Shown here one piece after another: positions 1 to 17,336 of a stretch of 64,000 nt of DNA. Under the pieces are notes generated by a model that searched no databases, was not told where the DNA came from, and saw nothing but the letters and a program-made list of their open reading frames with translations. How positions within the stretch are numbered: position 1 is the stretch's first letter; each line of letters begins with the position of its first letter. This stretch comes from an uncultured delta proteobacterium. GTDB lineage: Bacteria > Desulfobacterota > Binatia > JACPRU01. Made by a program: the position numbers and the translations under genes. The stretch spans positions 128,001 to 192,000 of the forward strand of contig CAVUWD010000010.1 in the NCBI GenBank assembly GCA_963745025.1. Direction: 5' to 3'.

Positions 1-10
1 CCGCGAAGGG

Positions 11-610
11 GTGAGCTCGCTCGCCGTGCTCGGCCTCCTCGTGCTGCTGGTCTTTCAGTTCGCCTTTCCGGAGCGCCCCACGCCCGAGGCGGCCGCGGCG
101 GCGCTCTGGCTCGCCTTCGTCCTGGCCGGGACCATCGGCGCACAGCGCACGTTCCTGCTCGAGCGCGAGAACGCCTGCATGCACGGGCTGGTGACCGCTC
201 CGCTCGATCCCGCCATGATCTTTGTCGCCAAGATGCTCGGCAACGTGGTGATCCTCACCGTGCTCCAGTTCCTCGTGGTGCCGTTGAGCGTGGTCTTCTT
301 CAATGTCACGCCGACGGGTCATCTAGGCTGGTTGGCCGTGGTCTGTTTCCTCGGCAACGTCGGCTTCTCCGCGGTGACGACGCTGTTTGCCGCGATCTCG
401 GTGCGGATCCGGGCCCGCGAGGTGATGTTGCCGCTGCTCGTCCTGCCGCTCGTCTCGCCGCTCTTGATCGCGGCCGTCAAGGCTTCGGCGCGCTTGCTCG
501 GCGACGGCTCGGTGGCCGAGGTCTCGGTCTGGATCCAGGTGCTGGCCGCGTTCGACGTGATCTTCGCCGCCAGCGGCTGGCTCTTGTTCGAGTACGTGGT
601 TCGGGAATAG
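11..610 (+). CDS. ccmB: Heme exporter membrane protein CcmB (5' end may lie before the window)
   Basis: Hydrophobic ORF with ERENxCxxGL, IFVAKxxGN and REVMLPLLVLP motifs, directly upstream of ccmC. Confidence 0.9.
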   Translation: MSSLAVLGLLVLLVFQFAFPERPTPEAAAAALWLAFVLAGTIGAQRTFLLERENACMHGLVTAPLDPAMIFVAKMLGNVVILTVLQFLVVPLSVVFFNVTPTGHLGWLAVVCFLGNVGFSAVTTLFAAISVRIRAREVMLPLLVLPLVSPLLIAAVKASARLLGDGSVAEVSVWIQVLAAFDVIFAASGWLLFEYVVRE

Positions 611-623
611 AAGCGGAGGGGCG

Positions 624-1319
624 ATGAAACGACTTGGCTCGTGGACGGAGCGGTTGCTCCCCTTGCTCGTCGGCCCGGGAATGCTCGGTTCCCTCTACCT
701 GATCTTCATGGTGGTGCCGACCGAGCGGGTGCAGGGGATCGTCCAGCGGATCTTCTACTTCCATGTTCCGGCGGCCTGGGCCGCCTTTCTCGGATTCTTC
801 GTCGTCGCGATCGCCGGCAGCCTCTTCCTGTGGAGCGGTCGCGCCGCCTACGACCGTGTCGCCCGTGCCGCAGCCGAGATCGGCATGATCTTCTGCACTC
901 TGGTGCTCCTCACCGGCCCGATCTGGGCGCGACCGATCTGGGGGGCGTGGTGGACCTGGGATCCACGCCTCACCATGACGATGATCCTGTGGACGATCTA
1001 CGCCTCCTACCTTCTCCTGCGCGCCTTCGGCGGCGCCGAGGAGGCGGTGGCGCGCTACGCCGCCGTGCTCGGCATCGTCGGGGCGCTCGACATCCCGCTG
1101 ATCATGATCTCGGTGCGGCTGTGGCGCGGCATCCACCCGTCCGTGATCACTGCCCGTCCCGGCGAGGGGGGGCTCGCCGACCCGAGCATGCGCTTCACGC
1201 TCCTCTTCACGGGCCTCTGCTTCGTGCTTCTATTCGTTTGGATGCTGCTCGTCCGGCTGCGGGCGCTGCACGTCGAGGACGAAATCGAGGCCGTTCACCG
1301 CCGGATCCATCCCGCCTGA
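624..1319 (+). CDS. ccmC: Cytochrome c biogenesis heme exporter CcmC
   Basis: RIFYFHVP and WWD motif WARPIWGAWWTWDPRLT; second His in RGIHP; GGAGG RBS. Confidence 0.95.
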   Translation: MKRLGSWTERLLPLLVGPGMLGSLYLIFMVVPTERVQGIVQRIFYFHVPAAWAAFLGFFVVAIAGSLFLWSGRAAYDRVARAAAEIGMIFCTLVLLTGPIWARPIWGAWWTWDPRLTMTMILWTIYASYLLLRAFGGAEEAVARYAAVLGIVGALDIPLIMISVRLWRGIHPSVITARPGEGGLADPSMRFTLLFTGLCFVLLFVWMLLVRLRALHVEDEIEAVHRRIHPA

Positions 1320-1329
1320 GGCGACCTGC

Positions 1330-1479
1330 ATGGAAAACTTCCCGTATCTCTTCTCGGCTTACGCGATCGTGTGGATCGTGCTCTTCGTCTACCTCTTCTC
1401 CCTGGATCGCCGCGGTCGCCGGGCCGAGCACGATCTCGAAGAGCTCCGTAAGCTCTTGCGCGCGAAGGAAGCGAAGTGA
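1330..1479 (+). CDS. ccmD: CcmD family small membrane protein (49 aa, below the ORF-track cutoff)
   Basis: MENFPYLFSAYAIVWIVLFVYLFSLDRRGRRAEHDLEELRKLLRAKEAK: one TM helix plus charged tail, immediately after ccmC. Confidence 0.88.
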   Translation: MENFPYLFSAYAIVWIVLFVYLFSLDRRGRRAEHDLEELRKLLRAKEAK

Positions 1480-1566
1480 AGCCGGTGCCGGTCGCCCCCA
1501 CCCGCCGGCCCTCGCCGATTCGCGCCTCGATGCCGGGCTGATCGCCGAGCGGTTCGCTCGAGCCGC

Positions 1567-2958
1567 TCAGCCCGCCGGATCGAGCCCCCCTGCTCTGCGA
1601 GGCTCCTGGGCTTCGCCCCGAGCGTGCTGCTTCGCAAGCGCGCGCCCGGCTTCGATCAGCGCGGGCACGCCGATCCCTCGCAGGTAGTTCCCGAGCAGAT
1701 GCAAGCCGGGGATGCGCGCGAGCGCGAGATCGACCGCGTCGAGGCGCGCGGGATGGGCCAGGTCGTAGCGCGGCAGAACCGAGCGATAGCGAAGCACGCG
1801 CGACCAGGGCGGGTCGCCGGACAGGCCGAGCAGCGGGAAGACTTCGCGCTCCACGATGGCGAGAATCTCCGGGTCGGACATCTCGGCCACTTCCGGATGC
1901 CGTGCGCCGCCGAGCAGGGTCCTCAGGAGCACCGTGCCGCGAGGCGCGCAGTCGGGATCGATGGAGGAGGAGAACAGCGTGCCGAGATGGAGGCGCTTCT
2001 CGCGCGAGGGGACGAGATAGCCGAAGCCGTCGAGCGGGTGCGCGACGCGCTCGCGCGGCCAAGCGTGGATCACGCAGGCGAGGCTCTCGAAGGAGATCGT
2101 CGCCAGCTCGCGCGATGCCTCCGGGCTCGCTTCACCGAGCAGCTCGGCCGCCGCTCGCGCGGACGTGGCGACGACCACGCGTGCGCAGTCGAAGAGCTCG
2201 CCGCCGGCGATCACGCGGAAGCGGGCGCCCTGTCTCCGCAGCGACTCCACCGGCGTCGAGAGCCTCAAGCGCGGCAGGAGGCTCTCGGCGAGCGCGCGCG
2301 TCAGCGATCCCATGCCTCCGCGCGGCTTGCACAAGGTCGGCGCGGCAGACGCGGCGCGGTCGCGCTTTCTCTTGAACAACGCCTTGGTGACGCTCCCGTG
2401 ATCCTCGACCATCCGCGCGAGGTCAGGGAACGTCGCCCGCAGCGAGAGCTGCTCCGGGTCGCCCGCCCAGACGCCGCTGACGAACGGGTCGAGCAGCGAT
2501 TCCACGACCTCTTGTCCGAAGCGGTGGCGCACGAACTCCGCCAGCGAGCCGCCGAGCGCGACCCGCGGGTCGCGGCGGAACTCCCCGAGAATCCGCAGTT
2601 TGCCACCCCAGGAGAGCAGCGGGCTCGACAAGAAGGAGAGCGGCGAGAGCGCGACCAGGTGTCCTCGATGGCAAAGAAAGCGCTTGTGCGCACCGCGCGG
2701 AGCCGGCACGAGCTCGAGGGCGAGCTCCGAGAAGAGCGCCACGACCTCGGGCGATCCCGACCGCAGCGCTTCGGGCCCGCGCTCGTAGCGCAGCTCGCCC
2801 CCCGCGCCGTCCCAGACGCCCCGCTCGGTGCGAACCCAGCCGCCGGTCGAGTCGGAGGCTTCGACCACCGCGAGGTCGGCATCGGGGCCTCGCGCGTGCG
2901 CGTAGGCGAGGCCCGAGATCCCCGCGCCGATCACCAGCGTGTCGAGCGAGCGGCTCAT
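1567..2958 (-). CDS. hemY: Protoporphyrinogen/coproporphyrinogen oxidase (HemY family)
   Basis: VIGAGISGL FAD motif, YERGP, PFVSGVWAGDPEQLS, GFGYLVP, GNYLRGIGV; start taken at ATG 2958. Confidence 0.93.
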   Translation of the reverse strand: MSRSLDTLVIGAGISGLAYAHARGPDADLAVVEASDSTGGWVRTERGVWDGAGGELRYERGPEALRSGSPEVVALFSELALELVPAPRGAHKRFLCHRGHLVALSPLSFLSSPLLSWGGKLRILGEFRRDPRVALGGSLAEFVRHRFGQEVVESLLDPFVSGVWAGDPEQLSLRATFPDLARMVEDHGSVTKALFKRKRDRAASAAPTLCKPRGGMGSLTRALAESLLPRLRLSTPVESLRRQGARFRVIAGGELFDCARVVVATSARAAAELLGEASPEASRELATISFESLACVIHAWPRERVAHPLDGFGYLVPSREKRLHLGTLFSSSIDPDCAPRGTVLLRTLLGGARHPEVAEMSDPEILAIVEREVFPLLGLSGDPPWSRVLRYRSVLPRYDLAHPARLDAVDLALARIPGLHLLGNYLRGIGVPALIEAGRALAKQHARGEAQEPRRAGGLDPAG

Positions 2959-3101
2959 ACGGGGGCCTCGCGCGCGCACACCGCGCGATGCTCGGCGAGG
3001 TGCCGGCCGGCTTGCCGCATGAGCCGGACGGGAGTTCGCGGAACCAGCTCGCGGCGCAGCGCCCGCAGGAGCAATCGACCGGGAGCGGTCGGGTGGATCA
3101 C
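2955..3101 (-). pseudogene. hemE: N-terminal remnant of uroporphyrinogen decarboxylase (48 aa)
   Basis: LLRALRRELVPRTPVRLMRQAGRHLAEHRAVC resembles the HemE signature LRALxxExVxRTPVWxMRQAGRYLPEYR; overlaps hemL stop (GTGA) and hemY start (ATGA). Confidence 0.85.
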
Positions 3102-4396
3102 GCGGGGCGCGCCTCCCCGAGCGCTTGCAGCGACGCCTGGAGCGCGGCGGCCGCCTGCTCGAGGTGGCTCGTCTCGTGCGCCGTCGAAACGAAGGCGACC
3201 TCGTAGTAGGAGGGCGCGAGCCAGATCCCGCGTTGCAGAAGCAGCGGATGGATCTCCGCGTAGCGCTCCGCGCCGCGCGGGTCGATGCGGTGGTAGGCGC
3301 GGGGCGCGGGAGCCGGCTCGAGCCAGAGCCCGAGCACGGAGCCGACGCGCGAGACGCATCCCGGCACCCCGGCGCGCTCGAACGCGAGCCGGATGCCCTG
3401 CTCGAAGCGCTCGCCCAGATCCTCGAGCCGCGCGTACGCGCCGGGCCGGTCGAGCTCGCGCAGCGTAGCCAGACCCGCCGCCATCGCCAACGGATTGCCG
3501 GAGAGCGTGCCGGCCTGGTAGACGGGCCCGAGCGGAGCAACGTGCCGCATGAGGTCTTCGCGCGCTAGATAGGCGCCGACGGGCATGCCGCCGCCGAGGA
3601 TCTTGCCGAGCGTCACGACGTCCGGCCGGATGCCGGAGATCTCGCTCATCCCGCCCGGCGCGACGCGGAAGCCGCTGATCACCTCGTCGAAGATCAGCAG
3701 AGCGCCGTGTTGGTGCGTCAGCTCGCGCAACGTCTGCAGGAACTCGCGACGCTGCACCAGGAGACCGGCGTTCGCGGGCAGCGGCTCGATCACCACGGCG
3801 GCGATCTCGGCTCCCTTGCGCGCGAAGAGCTCGCGAGCGGCCGCTTCGTCGTCGAGCGGCAGCACCTCCGTCAGCGCCGTGACCTCGGGCGGCACTCCTG
3901 CGGACGAGGGCGTGCCGAAGGTCGCGAGCCCGGAGCCCCCCTTCACGAGCAGCCCGTCGGAGTGTCCGTGGTAGCAACCCTCGAACTTGACGAGGCGCGA
4001 GCGTCCCGTTGCGCCGCGCGCGAGACGCACCGCGCTCATCACGGCCTCGGTGCCGGTCGAGACGAAACGCAACTGGTCGCAGAAGGGGAAGCGCGCGAGC
4101 GCGGCCTCCGCGAGCTCGATTTCCGCGGCACAGGTGGCTCCGAAGGAGAGGCCGTCGCGCGCGGCGCGCGTCACCGCCTCGACCACGGCGGGATGCGCAT
4201 GGCCGAGGATCAACGGGCCCCACGAGCCCACGAAGTCGACGTAGGTGCGACCCTCGGTGTCGGTGACGAGCGCACCGGAGCCCCGAGCGACGAACCGCGG
4301 GTCGCCGCGGACGGCGCGAAACGCCCGCACCGGGCTCGACACGCCGCCCGGCATTACCTTGCGCGCTCGCGCGAACAGATCCCCGGTGTTCTTCAT
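3098..4396 (-). CDS. hemL: Glutamate-1-semialdehyde 2,1-aminomutase
   Basis: MPGGVSSPVRAF, SWGPLILGH, FEGCYHGH, LIFDEV, LGKILGGGMPVG, YQAGTLSGNP; GGAGG RBS before ATG 4396. Confidence 0.97.
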   Translation of the reverse strand: MKNTGDLFARARKVMPGGVSSPVRAFRAVRGDPRFVARGSGALVTDTEGRTYVDFVGSWGPLILGHAHPAVVEAVTRAARDGLSFGATCAAEIELAEAALARFPFCDQLRFVSTGTEAVMSAVRLARGATGRSRLVKFEGCYHGHSDGLLVKGGSGLATFGTPSSAGVPPEVTALTEVLPLDDEAAARELFARKGAEIAAVVIEPLPANAGLLVQRREFLQTLRELTHQHGALLIFDEVISGFRVAPGGMSEISGIRPDVVTLGKILGGGMPVGAYLAREDLMRHVAPLGPVYQAGTLSGNPLAMAAGLATLRELDRPGAYARLEDLGERFEQGIRLAFERAGVPGCVSRVGSVLGLWLEPAPAPRAYHRIDPRGAERYAEIHPLLLQRGIWLAPSYYEVAFVSTAHETSHLEQAAAALQASLQALGEARPA

Positions 4397-4609
4397 CCAG
4401 ACCTCCTCCAGCGCTTCGCGTGCGCGGCGGGTGTCCACGAGGTCGGCCCCGGCCTGTTAAACGAACCGCTCGTCGAGCCAGCCCTCCGACGCGCCCGCCC
4501 GCATCATGCCGGTACCTCGCCGGAGACTTGGAAGCAAACCCGTTGCCGGAGCCGTCCCTCGCACGACGGACTTGACGCTGCGCGGCCGCCCCGGCAAAGC
4601 CTCAATGCG

Positions 4610-5743
4610 ATGAGCCAGAACCCCGATTCTCGCCGCTTCTGTCCGTCCTGCCGCGCCCCCGCGGTCTCCCGAGCGAGCTTCTGCGCCGCTTGTGGCGCGG
4701 GACTTCCCGGCGGGTCGACGCCGTGGCTGCGCCCGACCCTGCCCGCCTACGCCGTGCTCGCGGCCTTTTTCGCCGTCGGCCTCGGACTCTGGATCTCGCT
4801 GCTGGCTCCGGGCGGCTCGCCGCAGAGTCCGCCGCTCGCCGAGCAGGACCCCGGCGATAAGCCCTCGGCCGGCCGCGAGCTTCCGTCCGATCATCCTCCT
4901 ATCCCGCTGCCGGGCGACGTCGCGAAGCTCCTCGGCGATCTCGAGCGCCAGGCGGAGGCGGCGCCAAAGGACGTTGCCACCTGGAAGCGACTCGCCGAGC
5001 ACGAGTACCGCGCGGGGCGGGTCGACAAGCAGTACCTGGCGAAGGCCGAGAAGGCGTTCCGCCACATCCTCGAGCTCTCCCCGGATGACCGCGATGCCAT
5101 TCGCGGGCTCGGCAACCTCGACTTCGACCGCGACGATTATGCATCGGCCATCACTCACTACTCCCGCTATCTCGAGCTCGACCCGAAGGACTCCGGCGCG
5201 CGCACCGATCTCGGCACCATGTACCTTTATGCCGGCGATGTCGCGAAGGCGATCGCCGAGTATCAAAGGGTGATTGCCGCCGAGCCCGCCTACTTCGAGG
5301 CGCACTTCAATCTCGGCCTCGCCTATCGCCGCAGCGGCGACGAAGACAAAGCGAAGGAGAGCTTGGAGCGCGCCCGTTCGTTCGCTCCGGATGAGCGCTC
5401 GAAGCAGCAGGTCGCGGCGGCGCTCGCCGGGCCCGGCGGCGCGCCTCCTGCGGGTGGAGCGAAGCTCTCCTTCCAGCAGATGATCGAGCGGGGCCTGCGG
5501 GGGCATCCGATCGTTGGGCCCAAGATCGTCGGCTTCGAATGGCCGGGGCCGACTTCCGGGCAGGTGAAGCTCGACGGCTTCCCGCTGGAGGAGATGCCGG
5601 CGCCGGTCCGCGAGCGGTTCCTCGGTCGGCTGGAGAAGGATCTCGCCGATGCGCGCGCCAAGAGCGGCGAATCGGGCGAGGCGCAGCTCGCGCTCGTCGA
5701 CCGGGCGAGCGGCCGCGTCATGGCCACCGTCGTCGTTCGTTGA
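4610..5743 (+). CDS. Zn-ribbon + TM + TPR protein, CcmI/CycH-like cytochrome c maturation factor
   Basis: CPSC..CAAC N-terminus, TM helix, LPSDHPPI motif, several TPR repeats (ARTDLGTMY, AHFNLGLAY). Confidence 0.7.
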   Translation: MSQNPDSRRFCPSCRAPAVSRASFCAACGAGLPGGSTPWLRPTLPAYAVLAAFFAVGLGLWISLLAPGGSPQSPPLAEQDPGDKPSAGRELPSDHPPIPLPGDVAKLLGDLERQAEAAPKDVATWKRLAEHEYRAGRVDKQYLAKAEKAFRHILELSPDDRDAIRGLGNLDFDRDDYASAITHYSRYLELDPKDSGARTDLGTMYLYAGDVAKAIAEYQRVIAAEPAYFEAHFNLGLAYRRSGDEDKAKESLERARSFAPDERSKQQVAAALAGPGGAPPAGGAKLSFQQMIERGLRGHPIVGPKIVGFEWPGPTSGQVKLDGFPLEEMPAPVRERFLGRLEKDLADARAKSGESGEAQLALVDRASGRVMATVVVR

Positions 5744-7992
5744 ACGTTTTCACGATCCGGAATTCCGACCGCGCGGTGCTGCTGTCGGGCGGCGTCGCGA
5801 CGGCGCTCGTGCTCGGCGGCATCGTCGGGATCGGCCTGTTCATCCGCTGTTCGTTCTTCCGCAACTTCGTCAATCCCGAGGGTGGGTTCTTCTTTTACAG
5901 CGTCGACGCCCACGATCACCTGCGGCGCGTCATGCTGGGGATTCAGGCGTTCCCGGCCGTGCCCGTGCGTGATTCGTACATGGGCTATCCCGTTGGCACG
6001 GGCCAGATCTGGTCGCCGCTCTTCGATTACATACTCGCCGCCATCGCGGTTGTCGCGTGCCGCTCGCGGGCGGCGGTCGAAACATTGTGCTTCTTCGCCA
6101 ATCCCGCCTACGCCGGCCTGACGCTGTTGCTGCTCTTCGTCGTCGCGCGCAGGTTGTTGAGCCACACGCCCGCCGCGCTGGCCGCCGCCTTTCTTCTCGC
6201 GCTCTCGCCTGGGCACATCTCTTACACTCACCCGATGAACTTCGACCACCATGTTTTCGAGCCCATAGCCATTCTCGTCCTCACGGCCCTCGTCTTCCTG
6301 GAGCGGGACGATCGGTTGAGCATCGCCGGCACGTGCGGGGTTGCCGTCGCGCTGGTGATCACCATTTTCATGTGGCGAGGCAGCACCATCTACTGGGGGC
6401 TCACCTTCCTGCGCGTGCTGATCTGGTCGCTGGCGGCGCGTCGACCGCGGCTCGCCCGCGAGTATGCCCGTGGCTTTGCGGCGGCGGCCGTGGCGCTCGC
6501 TGTCTTCGTCTGGATGGATCCGTGGGGCAACGCGCGCAACGTCTCTTTCGGGATCGTTTCCGGTTTTCACGTCATCCTGCTCGGCTTGGCGGCGCTATGC
6601 CTCGGCGTCGTAGGCCGTGCGGCCGACCGCCGGCAGAGCGCCATCGCGCTGGCCGCGGTTGCCCTGGGGGTCCTGCTTTCACTGACACTGTCGCCGGTCC
6701 GCGAGGTCCTCCACAGCCTCTCGGCCGGTCTGGCCTTCTTCGGCCGCAGCGGAGACCCATGGTTGGCTTCCAACAGTGAATTGAAAGGCACCTTTTATCA
6801 CGGAGGCTTTTTCGCCGGCGCCACGTACCTGACCTTGTACTGGTTCCTCGCCCCGGGCGCGGTTGCGCACGCCTTCGGGCGCTGGCTGCGCGCGGAGGGA
6901 AGCGACAGGCAGCTCTTTGCCTTCTGCTTCATCGGTCCCTTGTTCGCCATGGGGTTGGTGCTGCGCTACGTGCACATCGCCGGTCTGGCGACGGCCTTTG
7001 CCGGCGGGTACCTGTTCGCACTGGCTTGGGAGAAATGGCGCCAGCCCATGGCCAGAGCCGGAGCCGTCGCATCGCTGCTCCTGCTGCTGCTGCCCTCTCT
7101 GCCTCATTACCAGGACACCCTGCAAAGCCGACTACCCGATCCCATGCGAATGGGGCTCTTTGGTTCCAAAGGCGTGCTGACCTGGCTGCGGGACAACACG
7201 CCCAAGACCGCGCACTATCTGGATCCGATCGCGGTGCCGGAATACGGCGTCATGGCGGAGTGGGACCTGGGGGCCATGATCTATCAGGTGGCCGAGCGAC
7301 CGGCCGTCTCTACGGCTTTCGGATGGGAGACGCACGGATTCTACGAAGAGAACACCTTCATGGCGACGACCGAGGCGGAGGTCGCCGAGCAAATTCTGAA
7401 CGACAATCGGGTGCGGTACGTGCTGCTGCGGGCGTATCAGGCGCGGGCGATGCACTTCGCCATCGCCGAATACGGCGTCAAGGAAGGGAAGATCCCACGC
7501 GCGCTGGTCGGCACGTATCAGCCCGACAAATCAATATACACTCGGCTCATGTACAATGACGGCGCGGCCTATCGCTCGGGCGCAGAGATCGTGCCCGGTC
7601 TCGAGCAGTACCGCCTGCTCTACGAATCCGACTACCTCGCCAGCGACGACCCGGGCCACGGGCTCAGCTACTACAAGGTGTTCGAGTTCGTTCGAGGCGC
7701 GCGCGTCCTAGGAACGGCCACGCCAGGAAGCGACGTCGCCCTCGAACTGCCTCTCCTGACCTCCCGGCGTCGACTCCTTCGATACACCAACTGGACGAAG
7801 GCGACGCAAGACGGCCGCTTCATGCTCACCCTGCCGTACGCGACCAACGTGGCGCAGGGCGACACCGCGGCACAGGGTGCGTACGCGATCGTCGACGACA
7901 ACGGGCGCAGAGCCAGCCTGGAAGTGACGGAAGCGGATGTCGTCTCCGGCAACTCGCTCAGCGTGATACTGGCCGAGCCCGAGGGGAGATGA
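5740..7992 (+). CDS. STT3/PglB/AglB family oligosaccharyltransferase
   Basis: Multi-TM N-terminus with VDAHDHLRR, FDHHVFE and SNSELK motifs; soluble C-domain with VMAEWDLG (WWDxG equivalent); TTG start overlapping upstream TGA. Confidence 0.85.
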   Translation: MNVFTIRNSDRAVLLSGGVATALVLGGIVGIGLFIRCSFFRNFVNPEGGFFFYSVDAHDHLRRVMLGIQAFPAVPVRDSYMGYPVGTGQIWSPLFDYILAAIAVVACRSRAAVETLCFFANPAYAGLTLLLLFVVARRLLSHTPAALAAAFLLALSPGHISYTHPMNFDHHVFEPIAILVLTALVFLERDDRLSIAGTCGVAVALVITIFMWRGSTIYWGLTFLRVLIWSLAARRPRLAREYARGFAAAAVALAVFVWMDPWGNARNVSFGIVSGFHVILLGLAALCLGVVGRAADRRQSAIALAAVALGVLLSLTLSPVREVLHSLSAGLAFFGRSGDPWLASNSELKGTFYHGGFFAGATYLTLYWFLAPGAVAHAFGRWLRAEGSDRQLFAFCFIGPLFAMGLVLRYVHIAGLATAFAGGYLFALAWEKWRQPMARAGAVASLLLLLLPSLPHYQDTLQSRLPDPMRMGLFGSKGVLTWLRDNTPKTAHYLDPIAVPEYGVMAEWDLGAMIYQVAERPAVSTAFGWETHGFYEENTFMATTEAEVAEQILNDNRVRYVLLRAYQARAMHFAIAEYGVKEGKIPRALVGTYQPDKSIYTRLMYNDGAAYRSGAEIVPGLEQYRLLYESDYLASDDPGHGLSYYKVFEFVRGARVLGTATPGSDVALELPLLTSRRRLLRYTNWTKATQDGRFMLTLPYATNVAQGDTAAQGAYAIVDDNGRRASLEVTEADVVSGNSLSVILAEPEGR

Positions 7993-8105
7993 CGGGAGGG
8001 TGATTCGACGTCCGATTGGGCTCCTGCGATGAGGCGTGATGCGCTGCCCGCGTTGACGCAGGATTTGCGGTTGCAGGCACTCGTGAAAGCAGGATACTCG
8101 AAGTC

Positions 8106-9503
8106 GTGGCAGCCCCGCACCGCTTCACCAAGCCGCTGGCCGCCGGATTCTTTTGTTGCGCCGTGATTCTACGGGCGTTGCTGTGTTGGGCGAACCCTCC
8201 GGCGAACTCCTTTGACGATCATTTCGCGCCGATCTTCATGACAATGAAGTCCGGCGTCATTCCCCCGAAAGACGCCTGCTATCAGTGTTACCATCCGCCC
8301 GTCTTCTACGGCATCTCCGCGCTGATTGGTAACGTGGCTGTTCGTGCGGGCGCCACGCTACCGCAGTTGATGAAACTCCTGCAATCCGTCTCCTGTGTTT
8401 ATGGGATATTGACCGTCGGTGTTTGCTACCTGATTGTCAGGAAATTTCCGCTCTCCGACTTCTCGATGTTGATATCGTTTGGGACCGTCTGCTTCCTGCC
8501 TCGTCATATCTACATGTCGGCAATGCACTCGAATGACACCATATCATATTTGTTCGTGGCGCTTGCGATATACATTGCCGTCGTTGTGATTGAGCGGGGA
8601 TTTCCCCCGCTGGATGCCGGCGTCTTGAGCGTGATCCTCACGATCGCGGAATTTACCAAGTACACCGCTTTGGTGGTTCTCCCGGTGGCAGTGACGGCCT
8701 TGTTTTCGGCTGTTCGCCACCGGCTGATCGTTTCGCGAAAAAGGGCTGTCTGCTTGGCCCTCGGCATGCTGGCGCTGCCCCTGACGACTTTAGCGGGTTA
8801 CATGCTGTCGAATGTGCGGCACTACGACAGCCCGCTGCCCTCGAACGTCGCGATCTATGATTCGACCGCCCACAGGCCCCGTGATGCGGGGGGAATCAGT
8901 TTCTTTACGTTCAAGCCATGGGAAGACATGCGGACCCCGATGCTGGCGCCGGGGAAGCTGCATTCCTTCTGGACGCTGATTTACAGCGGGATGTGGTTCG
9001 ACACCGAGCCGTATTTTCTGCGCTTCCTCGATGCAGACACCGGCTGGTGGAAGCATTATTACCGTTGGTACCGGGGAGAGGAGGGCTATCCAGGTGAAAA
9101 TCCTTCCTTGTCTCATTTCACGAGCCTGGCGGGTTTCGGGCTGATCGGGATGGGGCTGGTTCCCTTGGTGTTGATTCTGCTCGGCTTCGTTTGTTGTGTC
9201 ACCGGGAGATGGAGCGGGGTGAAGCAAGCCACCGTTTCGCAACGGATCAGCATGAGCATGTTCCCCGTGCTGGCGGTATTCAATGCGGCGGGAGTCATTG
9301 CGCTGACCATGAAATTGCCGGTCTACAACTCGATGAAAGCGTCCTACTTTCTGAACTCGACGCCCGCGTTCATGGTGTTCCTCGGCCTGGGGGTGATGCG
9401 TTGTGAGCGGAATGCAACCGTGAAGCGGATCGTTGCGGTGACCTTTGGTGGGTTGTTCACGCTCGCGACCCTGCATATTCTCCACATCGTCCTTGCCATC
9501 TAG
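8106..9503 (+). CDS. GT-C fold (ArnT/PMT, GT39-like) membrane glycosyltransferase
   Basis: Polytopic membrane protein with FDDH, YHPPVFY, HSND and FTKYT motifs; visibly lower GC than flanks. Confidence 0.65.
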   Translation: MAAPHRFTKPLAAGFFCCAVILRALLCWANPPANSFDDHFAPIFMTMKSGVIPPKDACYQCYHPPVFYGISALIGNVAVRAGATLPQLMKLLQSVSCVYGILTVGVCYLIVRKFPLSDFSMLISFGTVCFLPRHIYMSAMHSNDTISYLFVALAIYIAVVVIERGFPPLDAGVLSVILTIAEFTKYTALVVLPVAVTALFSAVRHRLIVSRKRAVCLALGMLALPLTTLAGYMLSNVRHYDSPLPSNVAIYDSTAHRPRDAGGISFFTFKPWEDMRTPMLAPGKLHSFWTLIYSGMWFDTEPYFLRFLDADTGWWKHYYRWYRGEEGYPGENPSLSHFTSLAGFGLIGMGLVPLVLILLGFVCCVTGRWSGVKQATVSQRISMSMFPVLAVFNAAGVIALTMKLPVYNSMKASYFLNSTPAFMVFLGLGVMRCERNATVKRIVAVTFGGLFTLATLHILHIVLAI

Positions 9504-9614
9504 CAGCAGGTGAAGGGAAATTGCGGATGTGGTGGGCGGACTTCGGCTACGGCTACGAGTACGCGATCATCGTCGGGGACGCCGCCGTCACTTGGAGTGC
9601 GGTGAGGTAGCGGC

Positions 9615-9959
9615 TCACTTGACCGGCTGCGGATGGCACCGGCCGCACGTGTTGATGCTCGACGCAAAGGCGCCCCGCCCGTTGTGGCATACGCCGCACG
9701 CCTTGCCCGCCTTGATCTCGTCCATCTTGATCGGCGGCACATCCTCGGCCTTCATCGGGAAGATCGCCGGGTGACAGACGTTGCAGGTGAAGCGCATGCG
9801 GTGCTGCCAGTGCGAGAACACGCTGATGGGGGCCATCTCGGAAGCTGCCGGTTCTTCCGCCCGCTTGAACGTGATGTCGCCCGGCGCCGCGGCCAGCGCG
9901 ATCCAGGCGCTCGCCAGAACGGCGATCGCGACGGCGAGGTGAAGCCGGATCGGTCTCAT
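9615..9959 (-). CDS. c7-type triheme cytochrome, periplasmic
   Basis: Signal peptide; FSHWQH, CNVCH, CGVCH, CGRCH; start at ATG 9959. Confidence 0.9.
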   Translation of the reverse strand: MRPIRLHLAVAIAVLASAWIALAAAPGDITFKRAEEPAASEMAPISVFSHWQHRMRFTCNVCHPAIFPMKAEDVPPIKMDEIKAGKACGVCHNGRGAFASSINTCGRCHPQPVK

Positions 9960-10621
9960 CCTTTTTTCGCCGGCTCCTTCGTGTGACAGGCCGCGCAGAC
10001 CTTCAAGTCGAGTGCGATCTTTCCCTTGCCGTGGCAGACGCCGCAGTATTTGCCGTCGCCCAACTCGTCCATCGTCATCGTCGTCGCGCCCGCCGTCTTC
10101 GGGAAGATTGCGTCGTGGCAATTGTCGCACGCGAGCCAACGGTCGTGCGTCGCGTGATGGAAGATCACGCCCTCCTCGCCCTTCAGCGGGACCTCGGTGT
10201 CGCGGCTCTCACGGGACGGGGCGCCCGTCTCGAGTGAACGGAGGGGTGCGATCACGTGCTTGTCGACCGCGGCGATCCAGTCGACCGCGGTCTTCGGAGC
10301 CTTCGGCACCGTGAGCTTCGGGAGCGCGGCGAGCGCCTCCTCCCAGGTGTCGAGTTGCTCGATCTCTGGCCGCCCTTCCCGCGGAAACTCGCGGAGCGTC
10401 GGTCCGGCGATCTTCGGCCGCGCCGCGATTTCCGTGCCTGGCGGGGGCTTCTTCGCGGTCTCGGGATGGAGCCATAGCTCGTACGGCGGTACGCCGTCGA
10501 GGAGCGTGCTGAGCACCCGGTGACGGGTCTGCGAGGCGCAGGCGACGAGGAGAGACGCGGCGGCCGCGACGGCGACGGCTGCGGCTTTCCTTCGGCATGT
10601 TCTGGCGAGCAATCGCTTCAC
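9956..10621 (-). CDS. c7-type triheme cytochrome lipoprotein
   Basis: GTG start overlapping upstream TGA; lipobox LLVAC; FHHATH, CDNCH, CGVCH, CAACH. Confidence 0.85.
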   Translation of the reverse strand: MKRLLARTCRRKAAAVAVAAAASLLVACASQTRHRVLSTLLDGVPPYELWLHPETAKKPPPGTEIAARPKIAGPTLREFPREGRPEIEQLDTWEEALAALPKLTVPKAPKTAVDWIAAVDKHVIAPLRSLETGAPSRESRDTEVPLKGEEGVIFHHATHDRWLACDNCHDAIFPKTAGATTMTMDELGDGKYCGVCHGKGKIALDLKVCAACHTKEPAKKG

Positions 10622-12474
10622 GGGTACGAGAGGTTTTCGTGATCCACGCCGTGGCACAGGAGGTTGCAGCTTCCCGAGAACGTCCCGGTGTCGTCGAACG
10701 TGGGGGGGCTCCCGGCGGACCTCCCGAGCACGATCCTCGAGTCGAAGTTGATGAGGTGCGTGTGCGATCCGGTCCGCCCCGGGCCGAGATCGCTGACACC
10801 GTGCGGATCGTGACACGCGGAGCAGGGAGCGCCGGCGGCGAGGTGCCCGCTGTGGCCTCCGCCGGAAGCGGTCGTCCGCGCCGTCTTCCTCTGGAAGCTC
10901 CTGTCGCCGAGGATGCTCGACCGGTTGTGGCAGCGATAGCAGAGAGCGTAGCTGTTGAAGCTCTCCGGAGTGTGGTCGGTAGTCACGTAGCGTTCCCTTA
11001 GGATGGGCGGGAACGCGGAGCCGTGAGGGCCCCGCGAGCCCTGCTCGTCGTCGGCGTGGCAGCTCGTGCAATAGATCATCGTGGAACTGCTCATGCCGGG
11101 CTCGAACTGCGACGGAAGGCTCGGCACGTTCGGCTCCCGGCCGATGTCGACGACCGGATGATACGAGGGGTTGGTGGGGTCGAAGGCGAGGCGCGTGTTC
11201 GTCGTGGGGCGGGCGCGCGGAATGCGATCCATGTCCGGCGCGTTCTCGGCGTGGCACTTGAAACAGACTTCGTACTCGTACGCCGCCTGCTCTAGCGCCG
11301 TACCGTTGCGGTCGACTCCGCTCACCCCGAACAGCATCCCGGAGATATCCGGCGCCTTGGCCTCACGATTGGTGAGGAGATGGGGATCGTGGCAGTCCGT
11401 GCAGGTCACGTCGCGGATGACGCCGCTTTGCGCGCCGACCAAACGTGACGACGTGATCGCGCTGAAGCGATGGCTCTGGCGGTGTGCGGAAGGCTTTTCC
11501 ACCTGGCGGCCGATGTCGACCATTCGCGGCCCGAGACGAGCAACCGGACGAGCCGCGGCCGCTCCCGCGACGGCGTGTGCCGGCGGCGGCCCGGAGCCGT
11601 GACATCCTCCGCTGATGCACGAGAACGGCTCGGGCGGCTCGTCGGTGAAGTTGAGCAACTGTTGCGCCGTGGGCGCGAAGTGGGGCGTGTGGCAGGTTTC
11701 GCATCCCCATTCGTTCAGCTGGGTGTAGGTCGGCCACGTCTTCGGGGGTATCGGCAGGACGCCGACGACGGACGCCGTCGAGGTCGCATGCACCGACGAG
11801 CTCCATTGGTCGATCTGGTGGCAGGCGATGCAGAGCGCGGAGTAGCGGTTGTCCATTCGCAGAAACTTCCCGTACACGTCCTTGTGAGAATCGTGGCAGG
11901 TGATGCAGTGAACCTCGTCCTGCCCTCCGTAAACGAGCTCCACGGGAGGCGACGGAGCCAGCTCATTGCTGGGCAGCGCATTCTGGTACGGAAACGACAC
12001 CGGGTGATGTCCGGAGAGGTCGAGACCGAAGTTCGACAGGCTTGCCGTAGGCAGGAAGCCGCTGCCCGCCATGCCGATTCCTCCTGCCGGGTTCAGTACC
12101 GCGCCCATGGCGATGGTCCCGTCGTGACAGCTGAGGCAAAGCTTGGTCGGGCCCGAGGGCTGGGGAAGCGGACCCGCTCTGAGCGTGGGGCTCGCGTAGA
12201 CCTGGTAGACCCTGGGCTCGAGCGCCCGGTTCCAGAGAGGCGAGCGGGGGGCGGCGTTGTGCGGCGTATGGCAGAAGACGCAGATCCGGGTCTCGGTGAG
12301 CGCACGGATCGGTCCCGGGCCGGACACCGAGAGGTTGTGCTTCGTCATCTGGATGTCGGCGGGCAGGGGCACGGGCACCTGTGCCCCTGCGGTGGACACG
12401 AGGCCGGCGAGGAGCAGCAGCAAGAGTCCGGGGGGCAGCGCTCCGCGCTCAGGACGTGCCACGGCGGTCTTCAT
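10618..12474 (-). CDS. Multiheme cytochrome c (10 CxxCH + CX4CH + CX3CH) with N-terminal OmcE-like domain
   Basis: Signal peptide; KHNLS..ICVFCHTPHNA..PLWNR..LCLSCHDG..HHPVSF..CITCH..LCIACH, then six more CxxCH plus CISGGCH and CNLLCH. Confidence 0.92.
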   Translation of the reverse strand: MKTAVARPERGALPPGLLLLLLAGLVSTAGAQVPVPLPADIQMTKHNLSVSGPGPIRALTETRICVFCHTPHNAAPRSPLWNRALEPRVYQVYASPTLRAGPLPQPSGPTKLCLSCHDGTIAMGAVLNPAGGIGMAGSGFLPTASLSNFGLDLSGHHPVSFPYQNALPSNELAPSPPVELVYGGQDEVHCITCHDSHKDVYGKFLRMDNRYSALCIACHQIDQWSSSVHATSTASVVGVLPIPPKTWPTYTQLNEWGCETCHTPHFAPTAQQLLNFTDEPPEPFSCISGGCHGSGPPPAHAVAGAAAARPVARLGPRMVDIGRQVEKPSAHRQSHRFSAITSSRLVGAQSGVIRDVTCTDCHDPHLLTNREAKAPDISGMLFGVSGVDRNGTALEQAAYEYEVCFKCHAENAPDMDRIPRARPTTNTRLAFDPTNPSYHPVVDIGREPNVPSLPSQFEPGMSSSTMIYCTSCHADDEQGSRGPHGSAFPPILRERYVTTDHTPESFNSYALCYRCHNRSSILGDRSFQRKTARTTASGGGHSGHLAAGAPCSACHDPHGVSDLGPGRTGSHTHLINFDSRIVLGRSAGSPPTFDDTGTFSGSCNLLCHGVDHENLSYP

Positions 12475-13531
12475 ATCCCTCCGTGACGCGGAACACCTGG
12501 ATCCGCGCGTTGTACGTGTCGCAGACGTAGAGAGTGTCCTCCTTGATGAAGGCGCCCGACGGAAGCCAGAACTCGGCGAAGCCGATGCCTCTCTGGCCGA
12601 GCGTCAACAGGAACTCTCCCTTCCGGTCGAACAGCTGAACGTTGTCGAAGAGTCCGTCCACGACGTAGATGACGCCGTCTCGGTCCACGGCGATGCCCTT
12701 CGGCATCGCCAGGTCGCCCGAGCCGTCGCCGTGACGACCGAAGGAGGCGAGCGGCTTTCCGTCCTCGTCGAAGATGCGGACGCGGAAATTGAGCGCATCG
12801 GTCACATAGAGCTCTCCCGCCGGCGATCGGAAGATGTGCGTCGGAAAATTGAGGCCGCTCTCGCCCTCTCCCCGCTCGCCGAACGAGAACGCCGGCTCGC
12901 CGGTCGTCCGGAATGCGTGGACCCGGTTCGCCAGTGTGTCGACGACGTAGACGAGCTTCCGCTGCGGGCTGTACGCGATGCCCGTCGGCCGCTGGAGCGG
13001 CTCCCCCCCGGCCTCGCGAAGGACGAAGCGCACGCCGCCGTCCGCTCCGAACGCGAACACCTTTCCGGCCGAGTCCGAGAGAAAGAGCGTCGACTGCTCG
13101 TCGAAGACCAGTCCCACGGGCGACGTGAGAGCGTCCCGTTCGGAGCCGTACAGACGAACGTAGCGCCGCTCGGCCGGCACGTAGAGATGCACGCATCGCC
13201 GGCCCATGTCGGCGACTGCGATCCGCCCGTCGTCACCAGTCGCGACGGCGACCGGCAGCACGAAAGCATTCCGCGCCGGATCCTCCCTGCCGAAGACGAT
13301 CGCGCTCGCGACCGACCTCGCGTCGGTGTCGGTGGCGAAACCGGTGAGCGACCGGACGTACGTGACCTTTGGAGGGCTCGGCGGAAACGGCCATTGCAGC
13401 GCGCTCGGAGGCTCGGCCGTCCTCATCGCCCACTTCGACGCACAACCGGTGCCGGCTGCCATGAACGCAAGCAGCCACACGGCCGCTCGCCCCGCTCCGT
13501 TTCCGTGATCGCCGTGATTCATGCCGCTCAC
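12449..13531 (-). CDS. NHL-repeat beta-propeller lipoprotein
   Basis: Lipobox-like AGTGC, WPFPPSPPK, repeated PxGIAVD/YVxD..N..VQxF NHL units. Confidence 0.88.
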   Translation of the reverse strand: MSGMNHGDHGNGAGRAAVWLLAFMAAGTGCASKWAMRTAEPPSALQWPFPPSPPKVTYVRSLTGFATDTDARSVASAIVFGREDPARNAFVLPVAVATGDDGRIAVADMGRRCVHLYVPAERRYVRLYGSERDALTSPVGLVFDEQSTLFLSDSAGKVFAFGADGGVRFVLREAGGEPLQRPTGIAYSPQRKLVYVVDTLANRVHAFRTTGEPAFSFGERGEGESGLNFPTHIFRSPAGELYVTDALNFRVRIFDEDGKPLASFGRHGDGSGDLAMPKGIAVDRDGVIYVVDGLFDNVQLFDRKGEFLLTLGQRGIGFAEFWLPSGAFIKEDTLYVCDTYNARIQVFRVTEGYEDRRGTS

Positions 13532-15564
13532 AGGATCCGCCGCCGCAGATGGAGATAGATGTACTGGTTCTCGCGATTGGTCCCGACCGTATTCGTGCCG
13601 CTCGTTTGCGATCCGTACGCGGTCCCGCCCAAAACCAGCTGCAGCTGTCCGGTGGTCCAGCTCAAGAACCCATCTACGCTGTACGCGTCGCCGTCGACCA
13701 GTCCGTTCACCCGGGAATACGATCCGCCGACGTTCAGCGACAGCCCCTCCAGGAAAAGCTGCTGCTGGAGGTATCCCGACGCAGTCACCGTTTCGTCCGT
13801 GAAGGCCCTTCGGTCGGTTTCCGACAGTCCCTGGCTATAATACCTGTTCACATAGGTCAGCGCAGCGTGGACGTCGGTCGTCCGGCCGATCGGGCTCACG
13901 TACTGCAGGTCCGCTCTCCATTGCCGGTAGGGGCTCACGTCCCATTCGAGGTCCTGGAATTCTCCGTCGGCGCGGAGCGGGCCGCGCTGGAGACGGAGTC
14001 CCACCGTGTAGACCGTCGTGTCGGTGAGGTTCCCCGGAAAAGAGCCGGACGTCACGGTGGGACGGACCAGCGCGTAGCTGTAGTAAGGGGTCACCTGGTT
14101 TTCGAAGAGCTCGACGCTGCCGTTCTGCGTGAGGGTGTTGGTGCGAATGTCGAAATTTCCGCCGAGGTTCGAATACGAGACGAGAAAATCGTAGGTCCGC
14201 GGGAGGGCGAACCTCGGCGGCAGCGTGAGCAACCGGATTTCGAAACTGTTCTGCACCGGCACGAGCGTGTAGTGGACGTTCTCGACGAGGGGAACGAGCT
14301 CGAACGGCGGCAACGGCGACTTCAGGAAGACGTCGATGCTTGCGCGATCGACGTTCGGCTGCAGCAGCCGAAAGGATCCTGGCACGAGGACCGCCGAGTG
14401 CGGCTCGTTGATGACGCTCGCCGTGCCGCTGTTGTCGCTGGTTCCCGTTCCGAGGTTCACCCCGGCGAGCAGCCTGCCCCACGGAATCGACTTCGTATAG
14501 TTGACGTCCACCCAGTGGAAGAGCGAGGTCGTCGAGCCGCCCACCGAGTCCCACGAATTGAACTCGAAGTGGTATCCCGAGTCGACGCTCTCGTAGAGCC
14601 GGTGAACGAGGTTTGCCAGGATGTCATTGCCGTGGTTCGTCAGCCGTTGGGACTGTGGAGTCGCCAGGTCGGTGATCGTGGCGTCGTCGTCGCGGTAGCG
14701 GTAGGAAGCGTCGCCGCGGAAGTTCCACGGTAAATACGTGTTCAACAGCTCGTACACGGAAAACTGGTCGCTATTGAAATCCTGCGACGGGCGGCTCTGC
14801 TGCTGATCGAAGGACCTCTTGACCACGCTGGACGTAAGCTGCACGCTCCGCAGGTTCACGAAGTTGCCGAGCACGTATTCGTACGATGTGCCGTTGAGTC
14901 CCAGAGAGTCGCTGAACCAAGTCGGATTGAAGCCGCCGTTGAAGGACAGCTCGTTCCCCGCCGCGGTGCGCAGGAAATACTTGCCATTCACTGCGAGTTG
15001 GTTCACCTCCGAAGACGTAACGCCGTAATCGTTCGACTGGTTCACGAAGTTGGTGCCAAAAAAATACGGCTTCTTGCGGTAATGGAGCTCTACGCCGCGC
15101 CGGTTCTCGATTTGATCGAATTGAGGCGCGGCCTGTTCGGTGAACATCGGCTCGTACCGGTCCGCGAAGACCACCATGTTGTAGAAGTGCTCGGGTAGCA
15201 GAGTGAGCCGCGTTTCGTATTCGGGGCCGGTCCTATGGCGCCAGCCGGTATCAGGCAGGAAGGACGATTGGTAATTCTCCTGTGAGAGGACCCCGCCGAC
15301 GGTGAACCGATACTGCAGGAACTTGGGGTCGTACGAGTAGCCGATCGATCCGACCGAAAGCTTTTCCTTGATGAACGTGTCGGTCCATTCGACGGTGCGT
15401 CCCGCACGGTTCCTATCGCGCTCCCACGACGTAAACACGTCGATCCAGGCGCCGTTGTCCACGGGTGTCGGCACGAACTCCCTCCAGTCGCAGAGCGCGG
15501 ACGACGAGGTCAGCGCCTCGAGCAGGCACAGGCCGATCAGCCGCAGCGCGAGGTATCTACCCAA
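13528..15564 (-). CDS. Large putative outer-membrane beta-barrel protein (porin-cytochrome conduit type)
   Basis: Signal peptide; 678 aa rich in Y/F/W/N/S/G with alternating beta-strand pattern; between NHL genes in a cytochrome operon. Confidence 0.7.
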   Translation of the reverse strand: MGRYLALRLIGLCLLEALTSSSALCDWREFVPTPVDNGAWIDVFTSWERDRNRAGRTVEWTDTFIKEKLSVGSIGYSYDPKFLQYRFTVGGVLSQENYQSSFLPDTGWRHRTGPEYETRLTLLPEHFYNMVVFADRYEPMFTEQAAPQFDQIENRRGVELHYRKKPYFFGTNFVNQSNDYGVTSSEVNQLAVNGKYFLRTAAGNELSFNGGFNPTWFSDSLGLNGTSYEYVLGNFVNLRSVQLTSSVVKRSFDQQQSRPSQDFNSDQFSVYELLNTYLPWNFRGDASYRYRDDDATITDLATPQSQRLTNHGNDILANLVHRLYESVDSGYHFEFNSWDSVGGSTTSLFHWVDVNYTKSIPWGRLLAGVNLGTGTSDNSGTASVINEPHSAVLVPGSFRLLQPNVDRASIDVFLKSPLPPFELVPLVENVHYTLVPVQNSFEIRLLTLPPRFALPRTYDFLVSYSNLGGNFDIRTNTLTQNGSVELFENQVTPYYSYALVRPTVTSGSFPGNLTDTTVYTVGLRLQRGPLRADGEFQDLEWDVSPYRQWRADLQYVSPIGRTTDVHAALTYVNRYYSQGLSETDRRAFTDETVTASGYLQQQLFLEGLSLNVGGSYSRVNGLVDGDAYSVDGFLSWTTGQLQLVLGGTAYGSQTSGTNTVGTNRENQYIYLHLRRRIL

Positions 15565-15570
15565 GGGCGT

Positions 15571-16707: not shown

Positions 16708-16749
16708 GGCGACACGCTCCAGCCAAGCGCAGCTCCGAGACGAACCGGT

Positions 16750-17079
16750 CTTGGAGTGTGCTCCGTCAACTTCTCGGTGAAGTGGTGATCGTTGAAGTTC
16801 GTCGAGCGCAGCTTCACGATCCGCTCGCGAATCTCGTCTTCAAGCCGGCGCGCCGGAGCGCGTCCGGTATTGCCGTGCACCAGCGCCGCCCGCCCGCGCT
16901 CTTCCAAGGTGCGTCGCACACGCCGTACCTGCCGCTCGATCAACCACGAAGCCGCGTCATCTTCAGCCGCCGCCGCTTCAGCCGCTCCACCGCGTCGCGC
17001 CGCTTCTACTGACTCTCGCTCATCGTGTCCATCCCTTCATTCTCGCCGAGAGGGCGGACATTTCACTGACTGCAATACA
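16750..17079 (-). mobile_element. Degenerate IS1202/ISNCY-type insertion sequence remnant (left end + transposase N-terminus)
   Basis: RQVRRVRRTLEERGRAALVHGNTGRAP...NDHHFTEKL HTH fragment with upstream stop and frameshift; end TGTATTGCAGTCAGTGAAATGTCC read from 17079. Confidence 0.7.
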
Positions 17080-17139
17080 AGCGCTGCCCTCTCCGTTGCG
17101 GCTCCGCGCGGCCGGCTGCGGTGATCGAGGCGGCGCCCC

Positions 17140-17336
17140 TAACCTTGATCCGAAATTCCTAACCCGCTTCCCCGATCCGAAATCCGCGCGGGTCCTGTCG
17201 TCAGCGTAGCCCGCGCGGTGCTCGCTGGCGGCCCCACCGCGCCGCTCCACTGCCCCGCGACTTCGCGCCCGATTCGCTGCGCGCCGCGCGGGCGCCCACG
17301 CCGACGCCACCCGCACGAATTTCGAATCGGGGCTCA
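17140..17336. repeat. MITE-like element A with imperfect terminal inverted repeats
   Basis: Starts TAACCTTGATCCGAAATTCC, ends GAATTTCGAATCGGGGCTCA; 17252-17336 recurs inverted at ~26952-27035. Confidence 0.55.

Follow-up and report, generated by a model that had tools for sequence, protein, structure and literature searches.

The 64,000-nucleotide stretch analysed here (the window: positions 128,001 to 192,000 of contig CAVUWD010000010.1, assembly GCA_963745025.1, from an uncultured delta proteobacterium) carries a gene for a member of the STT3/AglB family of glycosyltransferases whose fold and arrangement of domains match those of AglB. Alignment to AglB proteins shows a predicted metal and phosphate site that is intact and a predicted pocket for the +2 Ser/Thr of the N-X-S/T acceptor sequon that is partly dismantled. 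We tentatively favor the reading, plausible but short of probable, that this enzyme follows a relaxed or non-N-X-S/T acceptor rule and has the proteins of the local cytochrome cluster as its main targets. We infer its activity, donor, acceptor proteins and linkage from sequence. The gene and its motifs are given below in window coordinates, with residues placed by profile alignment on AglB-L of Archaeoglobus fulgidus (AfAglB).

5740 to 7992, plus strand: AglB-L-like STT3/GT-C glycosyltransferase of 750 amino acids, with membrane, core and L1 peripheral domains (Pfam PF02516, PF22627 and PF18079)
5902 to 5919, plus strand: VDAHDH, first acidic motif, residues 55-60; D56 falls on the metal ligand D47 of AfAglB
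6241 to 6252, plus strand: FDHH, residues 168-171; D169-H170-H171 fall on D161-H162-H163
6769 to 6780, plus strand: SNSE, residues 344-347; E347 falls on E360 of TIAE (the TIXE/SVSE motif)
6964 to 6966, plus strand: R409, counterpart of R426 near the phosphate site
7258 to 7272, plus strand: EWDLG, residues 507-511; E507-W508-D509 fall on W550-W551-D552 of WWDYG
7309 to 7329, plus strand: STAFGWE, a clade signature that replaces the DGGK/NPFQ loop, by alignment to ANPFQ of AfAglB

The open frame is uninterrupted across its 750 codons, and it starts at a TTG within the final 4 bases of an upstream TPR gene, which ends in TGA; a 95%-identical database protein has the same start position. The STT3, AglB_core and AglB_L1 matches each exceed their own Pfam cut-offs. 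Against TIGR04154, the NCBIfam model of an archaeosortase-associated oligosaccharyltransferase, the protein scores 234.5 bits and does not reach the curated cut-off of 450, and neither do two relatives, from loci L077 (349) and L079 (304). The gene is the sole PF02516 match in its own genome. An initial annotation, made from the sequence alone, had named the motifs VDAHDH, FDHH, SNSE and EWDLG, and all four are found in the gene, starting at 5902, 6241, 6769 and 7258.

An AlphaFold model of the protein, computed from an input of 21 sequences, has a mean predicted local distance difference test score (pLDDT) of 84. Over 638 aligned residues it matches the AfAglB-L structure 3WAJ with a Z score of 34.6 and a root-mean-square deviation of 2.9 Å, and Foldseek matches it to 7E9S with an E value of 7e-26. 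In the fold search, PglB chains reach Z 26 and rank below AglB-L and eukaryotic STT3 (Z 32-35, with AglB-L chains spanning Z 28-35); a profile search against PDB sequences listed AglB chains, and PglB was absent among its matches. The hallmarks of GT66, the STT3/AglB/PglB superfamily, are present: a GT-C membrane domain with a C-terminal core domain and, by profile alignment, two acidic metal-binding motifs, the TIXE/SVSE glutamate and the phosphate-site arginine. The intact W-W-D triad of canonical N-oligosaccharyltransferases is replaced by E-W-D. Nor does the protein look like the PglB type of Campylobacter and Desulfovibrio, being nearer AglB by fold and having TAFGWE where PglB has DGGK. 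E613 and K618 of the AfAglB DK motif fall on Y566 and M571 in the profile alignment, which is not structure-level for each residue, and the DK/MI motif can be placed reliably only with a structure-level alignment (PMC3703281). The description of the gene product as an AglB-like STT3 enzyme is thus upheld by the Pfam matches, by the presence of the STT3 fold and by the full-length match to AfAglB-L, as is its archaeal-type D-H-H motif, which aligns with D161-H-H of AfAglB.

We aligned 167 of 178 collected homologues, with identities down to 22%; the remaining 11 were left out because their lengths fell outside 560-900 amino acids. The 37 proteins at 32% identity or more, the window protein counted, are referred to as close homologues. 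In AfAglB, D47, D161 and H163 are metal ligands, E360 is an indirect ligand, and R426 lies near the phosphate (PMC8342417). Across the 167 proteins, the position of D56 is D in 156, with gaps in the other 11, that of D169 is D in 159, that of E347 is E in 147 and Q in 16 (either in 163), and that of R409 is R in 162. The peptide-binding glutamate of external loop 5 (EL5) and the entire AglB C-terminal domain are retained, and T525, G528, W529 and E530, which make up a T-x-F-G-W-E motif, are invariant in 37/37 close homologues. The D169 column holds G in 6 of the 37; these proteins (P0008, P0010, P0012, P0016, P0018 and P0019) form a subgroup whose second metal motif reads G-H-H, not D-H-H.

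The +2 Ser/Thr pocket has been assigned to WWD plus the DK/MI motif (PMC8342417, PMC3703281). Its first position is W in only 13 of the 167 homologues; the second W is present in 152, the D in 78 and the entire triad in 11. No close homologue has a complete WWD: the first position is D in 9, E in 8, N in 6, S in 4, R in 4, P in 2 and G, W or A in 1 each, and the aspartate is present in 19 and lost in 18. W508 and D509 are present in the window protein and in its 6 nearest proteins. The DK lysine, K618, aligns with M571 of the window protein, at a position that is variable in the clade. Judged from this alignment, EWDLG is one state of a freely varying position and no special W-to-E change, because the first WWD position varies across the branch while the catalytic residues stay. 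WWDXG varies among archaeal paralogues as well (PMC5131992), and Desulfovibrio PglBs keep WWDWG (PMC12229607). The W457S substitution in Campylobacter jejuni PglB is inactivating despite strong protein production (PMC3527161, Table 2), and S-W-D occurs naturally in the clade of the window protein. Because W-to-S at the first WWD position inactivates C. jejuni PglB, the +2 pocket in this clade has probably been remodelled. The initial annotation had traced a possibly altered acceptor specificity to the W-to-E change. That cause falls away, since the position is free, with E in only 8/37 close homologues, and since variation extends to the WWD aspartate and the DK lysine; among homologues the first WWD position is too variable for W-to-E to count as a unique change. 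Altered acceptor recognition itself we judge, from the aligned residues, to be a likely property of the enzyme.

A FastTree phylogeny of 42 sequences was rooted on two WWDYG proteins (loci L021 and L023, archaeal-looking by eye from their neighbors); it contains no named STT3, and neither it nor our other trees include a PglB sequence. Eight WWD proteins branch first, and the remaining 34 form one group with a support of 0.91. This topology lends modest support, without a formal clade test, to a single early loss of the first W. Few hosts are known: a Nitrospirae metagenome-assembled genome (MAG) and proteins labelled Geobacteraceae and Deltaproteobacteria. The STT3 gene occurs in 3/301 and 6/401 genomes of two overlapping phylum samples, in 5/401 genomes of the phylum of the Nitrospirae MAG, in 0/7 genomes of the window host's own family (65-84% complete) and in 5/87 genomes of the family of genome G848, which belongs to the same phylum as the window host. 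The gene order purD-ccsB-OmcE suggests that the G848 family is Desulfuromonadia-like. A contig scan of the genome collection with the window protein alone returned 1 locus, and a plasmid collection gave no match to the protein. Two AglB-like proteins, P0153 (1122 amino acids) and P0169 (1214 amino acids), have a fused C-terminal PQQ-type beta-propeller.

Around the STT3 gene, the window contains the following features.

2 to 4438, both strands: ccmB and ccmC (plus) and two heme-synthesis genes (minus), matching Pfam CcmB, Cytochrom_C_asm, Amino_oxidase and Aminotran_3
4610 to 5743, plus strand: membrane-anchored TPR protein with a weak CcmH/CycH-type TPR match and a presumed start
8106 to 9503, plus strand: second GT-C membrane protein (PMT_2/GT39-like), of lower G+C content (57%)
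9615 to 16707, minus strand: operon of an NHL propeller, a 678-amino-acid barrel-like protein, an NHL propeller, a 10-12-heme cytochrome and two c7 triheme cytochromes
22690 to 25864, plus strand: large PKD-domain cytochrome with 7 CxxCH motifs, in four pieces with three frame changes
25884 to 26732, plus strand: OmcE-like tetraheme cytochrome (E 2.3e-16 to 7TFS, 1.1e-13 to 9YUQ)
26043 to 26051, plus strand: N-E-T sequon at N54, within G-I-N-x-T-x-H-D-L of the OmcE-like protein, the best candidate acceptor site

The two heme-synthesis genes are probably hemY and hemL, named from family and context, and the 678-amino-acid protein, which has no family match, is called a putative barrel from its composition and gene order. 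The initial annotation placed the STT3 gene among cytochrome genes; this agrees with the heme and Ccm genes upstream and with the nearest triheme cytochrome, 1.6 kb downstream, although 18 kb separate it from the OmcE-like gene. It counted twelve hemes in the 618-amino-acid cytochrome, a figure reached when CxxxCH and CxxxxCH are included; CxxCH alone gives 10. Its giant cytochrome is not one open reading frame (ORF) in the assembly, given frame changes near 23390, 24850 and 25200, the first at a run of C. These are likely assembly errors. At locus L064 a related 897-amino-acid cytochrome, which matches two of the pieces, lies in one frame. Reads over 7000-26900 from four runs, in short low-depth contigs, include one record of 151 bases that spans the first frame change with 5 differences and 1 gap, and the listed records settle neither the second nor the third. 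RNA contigs from relatives, at 90-95% identity, cover parts of the PKD-cytochrome and OmcE-like genes; none of them covers the STT3 part 7000-7992, which weighs neither way. A promoter and terminator scan stayed at chance level.

Several smaller observations concern the same region. The slot 3' of the STT3 gene (8000-9560) is variable: the PMT_2-like gene found in the window is missing from the 96%-identical relative L007, which has a short gene for a secreted protein with a carboxypeptidase-regulatory domain there (L007:5241-6695). A possible transposase remnant, recognized by eye, lies at 16704-17500, just upstream of the propeller-barrel operon, where L007 aligns in pieces. At 19085-22037 on the plus strand are genes for a triheme cytochrome, a 4Fe-4S protein and an NrfD-type membrane protein, with the DsrP model over its cut-off and DsrO just under; this DsrO/DsrP-like module could connect the quinone pool to the cytochrome conduit.

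We tabulated 19 close-clade loci and merged near-identical pairs (window/L007, L008/L009, L011/L012, L077/L080), which leaves 15; six of these (L010, L014, L015, L017, L019 and L082) are too short to judge. A cytochrome with at least 3 hemes lies within 2 kb of the STT3 gene at 6 of the 9 judgeable loci (window, L002, L011/12, L013, L016 and L077/80). L013 and L016 share a gene order, so the positives amount to about five lineages. For comparison, 66 of the 5036 genes in the window's own genome (1.3%) have such a cytochrome within 2 kb. At L011/L012 an orthologue of the OmcE-like gene of the window immediately precedes the STT3-family gene, and at L077 (8643-18601) and L080 a DWGLG member stands between purD and cytochrome-biogenesis genes, before ccsB, at the start of a true OmcE cluster. 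The L079 gene is flanked by glycosyltransferases, a tRNA(Val)-methylase-like gene and ffh, a setting that PMC13712944 places at the opposite end of the OmcE region. Outside the close clade, 1 of 11 tabulated loci has a multiheme neighbor. The link to cytochromes is real and not exclusive: it recurs at 6/9 loci, and the proposal that the enzyme is dedicated to cytochromes is not supported in view of L008, which lacks a multiheme gene, and of distant members beside pilin genes.

Other loci differ in their surroundings. RWSMG members at L013:5554-9960 and L016:723-5236 come after a MORN-repeat gene and point towards genes for a 12-heme cytochrome and a TPR-GT41 (O-GlcNAc transferase-like) protein. 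At L046:9864-12760 a type IV pilin gene immediately precedes a distant member, accompanied by GT2, TPR and YfhO genes; another distant member, at L052:205-3469, lies beside two short Flp-like pilin ORFs (labelled by eye, with no NCBIfam match). The RWDLG member at L047 (G573:C64:1-17527) has barrel and propeller genes on its two sides, inside an OmcE-like cluster. The complete genome G921, which carries L077, has a second paralogue, RWDYG, at an unrelated place (L078), and the genes at L080 and L081 (G925) are in several pieces.

The initial annotation also drew on N-X-S/T counts of 8, 3, 5 and 5 in the PKD cytochrome (4+2+1+1, its four in-frame pieces taken separately), the OmcE-like protein, the 618-amino-acid cytochrome and the barrel. 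These counts are correct. However, within-protein shuffling gives 21.6 expected sequons for the 21 seen (p 0.60), and local shuffling in stretches of 50 residues gives 22.1; for all 12 local sequences the figures are 23 seen and 23.4 expected. Sequon density in the local proteins is threefold that of other exported proteins (8.3 versus 2.8 per 1000 amino acids) because they are rich in Asn (5.4% versus 2.6%) and Ser plus Thr (17% versus 11%). Genome-wide there is no excess either, in 478 predicted exported proteins (379 versus 382) or in 21 exported cytochromes (16 versus 17), the exported set being defined by our own gene calls and hydrophobicity rule and the shuffle test being run without a positive control. 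The multiheme neighbors at six close-clade loci have 36 sequons for 37.2 expected. Sequon enrichment as evidence of N-glycosylation was therefore rejected, being null at three levels: locally, genome-wide and beside close relatives. Individual loci vary. The OmcE beside the DWGLG member at L077 has 0 sequons for 3.1 expected (p 0.026). Post hoc, and for few loci, we noticed that sequons seen and expected stand at or below expectation where the WWD aspartate is lost (L013, L016 and L077: 10/9.9, 1/1.4 and 1/6.2) and at or above it where the aspartate is kept (window, L002, L012 and L047: 10/10.7, 12/10.9, 3/3.0 and 38/24.9).

The OmcE-like protein has 1372 matches at E 1e-15 or better, of which the best 120, on which our orthologue counts rest, are 57-93% identical. 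They are characterized by the N-terminal G-I-N-x-T-x-H-D-L and many invariant Asn residues, and named matches come from Nitrospirae and Deltaproteobacteria; this group is possibly a further nanowire subfamily. Six Asn columns other than N54 are present in 120/120 orthologues, and four of the six never lie within a sequon. The Thr of the N54 sequon belongs to a T-x-H-D-L motif common to 7TFS. Because other Asn residues are invariant outside sequons and the Thr sits in a family motif, the N54 site may be structural. A P-L-W-N-x-T sequon is found in 9YUQ too, which is presumably the OmcE of D. soudanensis, whose map has no extra densities (PMC13712944).

In the reading that we favor, the protein would be an inner-membrane, metal-dependent (Mn/Mg) transferase of the STT3/AglB family. 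It would take a sugar or oligosaccharide from a polyprenyl-phosphate (undecaprenyl) carrier made elsewhere in the genome, which has 4 PF00953 and 6 PF02397 matches, none of them on this contig. It would then transfer the glycan, at the periplasmic face, to exported proteins that have yet to fold or polymerize, most likely to proteins of the neighboring OmcE-type cytochrome conduit or filament. There would be no strict N-X-S/T reading: because the +2-hydroxyl pocket is worn across the whole branch, the acceptor may be Asn under a loose rule or a Ser/Thr hydroxyl. Its grounds are the full-length match to AfAglB-L, catalytic residues that are retained where WWD is seldom whole, the variable DK lysine position, the natural S-W-D proteins, the missing sequon excess, the sequon-free OmcE at L077 and the recurrence beside multiheme cytochromes, with the OmcE-like neighbor at L011/L012. 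A broader version, which we regard as doubtful, is that a large, mostly bacterial AglB-like branch lost its sequon pocket once and became sequon-independent, possibly O-linking, for surface filaments, with a subclade specialized for OmcE-type nanowires. On such nanowires the glycan would act as insulation or regulate bundling.

Several observations weigh against our preferred reading. The window protein has W508 and D509, and with them two of the three residues that hydrogen-bond to the +2 hydroxyl. The N54 sequon, as GINx(T/S) with a variable x that is never Pro, is found in 117 of the 120 OmcE-like orthologues. The absence of sequon enrichment is compatible with few true sites, and one distant member, at L047, has an excess in its six cytochromes (38 sequons versus 24.9 expected, p 0.002, at 1 of 10 loci tested). 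Three of the nine judgeable loci (L008, L018 and L079), with flanks of at least 5 kb on both sides, have no multiheme neighbor, and the close-clade loci are kin and not independent. No gene for lipid-linked-glycan assembly or a flippase was recognized next to the STT3 gene, and other GT-C enzymes, of which the genome has 41 PMT_2 matches, many clustered on contigs C8, C13 and C16, could modify the cluster proteins.

Some of these points would fit a classical N-X-S/T oligosaccharyltransferase for the local cytochromes, in which W508 and D509, perhaps with E507, read the +2 Ser/Thr at a few sites such as N54. We consider this quite unlikely. Apart from the retention of W508 and D509 in the window protein and its 6 nearest proteins, the near-constant N54 sequon and the excess at L047, it has precedents: the multiheme cytochrome HmcA of D. 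gigas is N-glycosylated, with one known glycan site, at N261, and a role for PglB inferred by the authors (PMC4894442), and archaeal OmcZ2 is proposed to be glycosylated, with extra density at 10 of 11 sequons (PMC13748539). However, it has to accommodate the lack of sequon enrichment, a possibly structural N54, the 9YUQ sequon in a protein that would carry no extra densities if it is the D. soudanensis OmcE, the loss of the D509 equivalent in 18/37 close homologues and the inactivation of PglB when the first W is lost. A general cell-envelope transferase, acting on pilins, other surface proteins, lipid or polysaccharide in variable surface-gene islands and close to cytochromes only through the island, is an unlikely alternative that nonetheless deserves weight. 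It would explain why L008, a 64%-identical member, is free of multiheme genes for 10 kb to each side (22 kb), why only 1/11 loci outside the close clade has one, why L046 and L052 adjoin pilin genes, and why the spread is patchy (0/7 genomes in the same family and 5/87 in the other); the gene is also the only STT3 in its genome, and the following gene differs between 96%-identical relatives. Yet the cytochrome neighborhood recurs across gene orders and hosts (window, L002, L011/L012, L013/L016 and L077/L080) far above the 1.3% background, and the EL5 peptide-binding glutamate and the AglB C-terminal domain are retained. That the gene is an STT3 copy which is inactive or degenerating, and no longer acts as a transferase, we hold to be highly improbable. 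A motif deemed essential in all studied oligosaccharyltransferases is broken, and G replaces D169 in 6/37 close homologues; but the 750-amino-acid frame is intact, the catalytic residues are near-invariant in 167 proteins down to 22% identity, and the T-x-F-G-W-E motif is invariant.

Automatic STT3-domain labels in these bacteria and the N-glycosylation of a multiheme cytochrome are already known. In the full-text literature searched, which leaves most subscription papers outside, we found no account of bacterial AglB-L-like enzymes in which the first W is free across a branch, or of OmcE clusters that contain an STT3 gene, and the accessible parts of 10.1101/2025.10.15.682550, 10.64898/2026.10.06.756670, 10.64898/2026.05.27.727921, PMC9473688 and PMC13748539 have none. 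The Geobacter PglB candidate tested in PMC4894442 may belong to the same branch. For the window gene alone, the W-to-E change and the sequon counts hold no special signal. The branch as a whole, with at least 150 divergent members in which the catalytic site is kept and the pocket drifts, offers a natural test of the sequon rule and might supply glycoengineering with transferases that obey new acceptor rules. Geobacter sulfurreducens OmcE filaments show extra densities that have been taken as glycans with a proposed effect on insulation and bundling, and the accessible part of that account leaves the transferring enzyme unnamed. The subclade described here is a concrete candidate for OmcE glycan transfer in some lineages, not most. 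If the branch is indeed sequon-independent, it would provide the first STT3-family enzyme with a non-N-X-S/T rule and the first named enzyme for glycosylation of bacterial cytochrome nanowires.

Among known systems, A. fulgidus AglB-L (PDB 3WAJ, 3WAK, 5GMY and 7E9S) has a fold in common with the window protein over 638-689 residues and the same membrane, core and L1 order, and D47, D161-H-H, E360 and R426 have equivalents. The two differ in that identity is 17-19%, W550 is replaced by E, the ANPFQ loop by TAFGWE and, in the profile alignment, K618 by M, and the window enzyme has a bacterial host and scores below the TIGR04154 cut-off. Bacterial PglB (C. jejuni, C. lari and Desulfovibrio) is likewise a single-subunit bacterial STT3-family enzyme, but the Desulfovibrio proteins keep WWDxG (as WWDWG) where the window protein has EWDLG, and no pgl locus was recognized beside the window gene. 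The OmcE nanowire clusters differ in gene order, and the OmcE-like protein of the window belongs to a divergent subfamily, whose relation to OmcE is one of sequence likeness to 7TFS and 9YUQ. The words 'oligosaccharyl' and 'STT3' do not occur in the accessible text of PMC13712944, which reports GT2, GT4 and GT39 genes added to OmcE clusters in many freshwater lineages. The STT3 gene does not represent a general OmcE-modifying enzyme, since it is in only 5/87 genomes of the G848 family. Even so, like the clusters in that paper, the window has multiheme cytochromes, two beta-propellers, a large putative barrel and an OmcE-like subunit, together with GT39-like and TPR genes and Ccm genes nearby, and relatives of its STT3 enzyme stand at both ends of the OmcE region, at L077 and L080 on one side and at L079 on the other.

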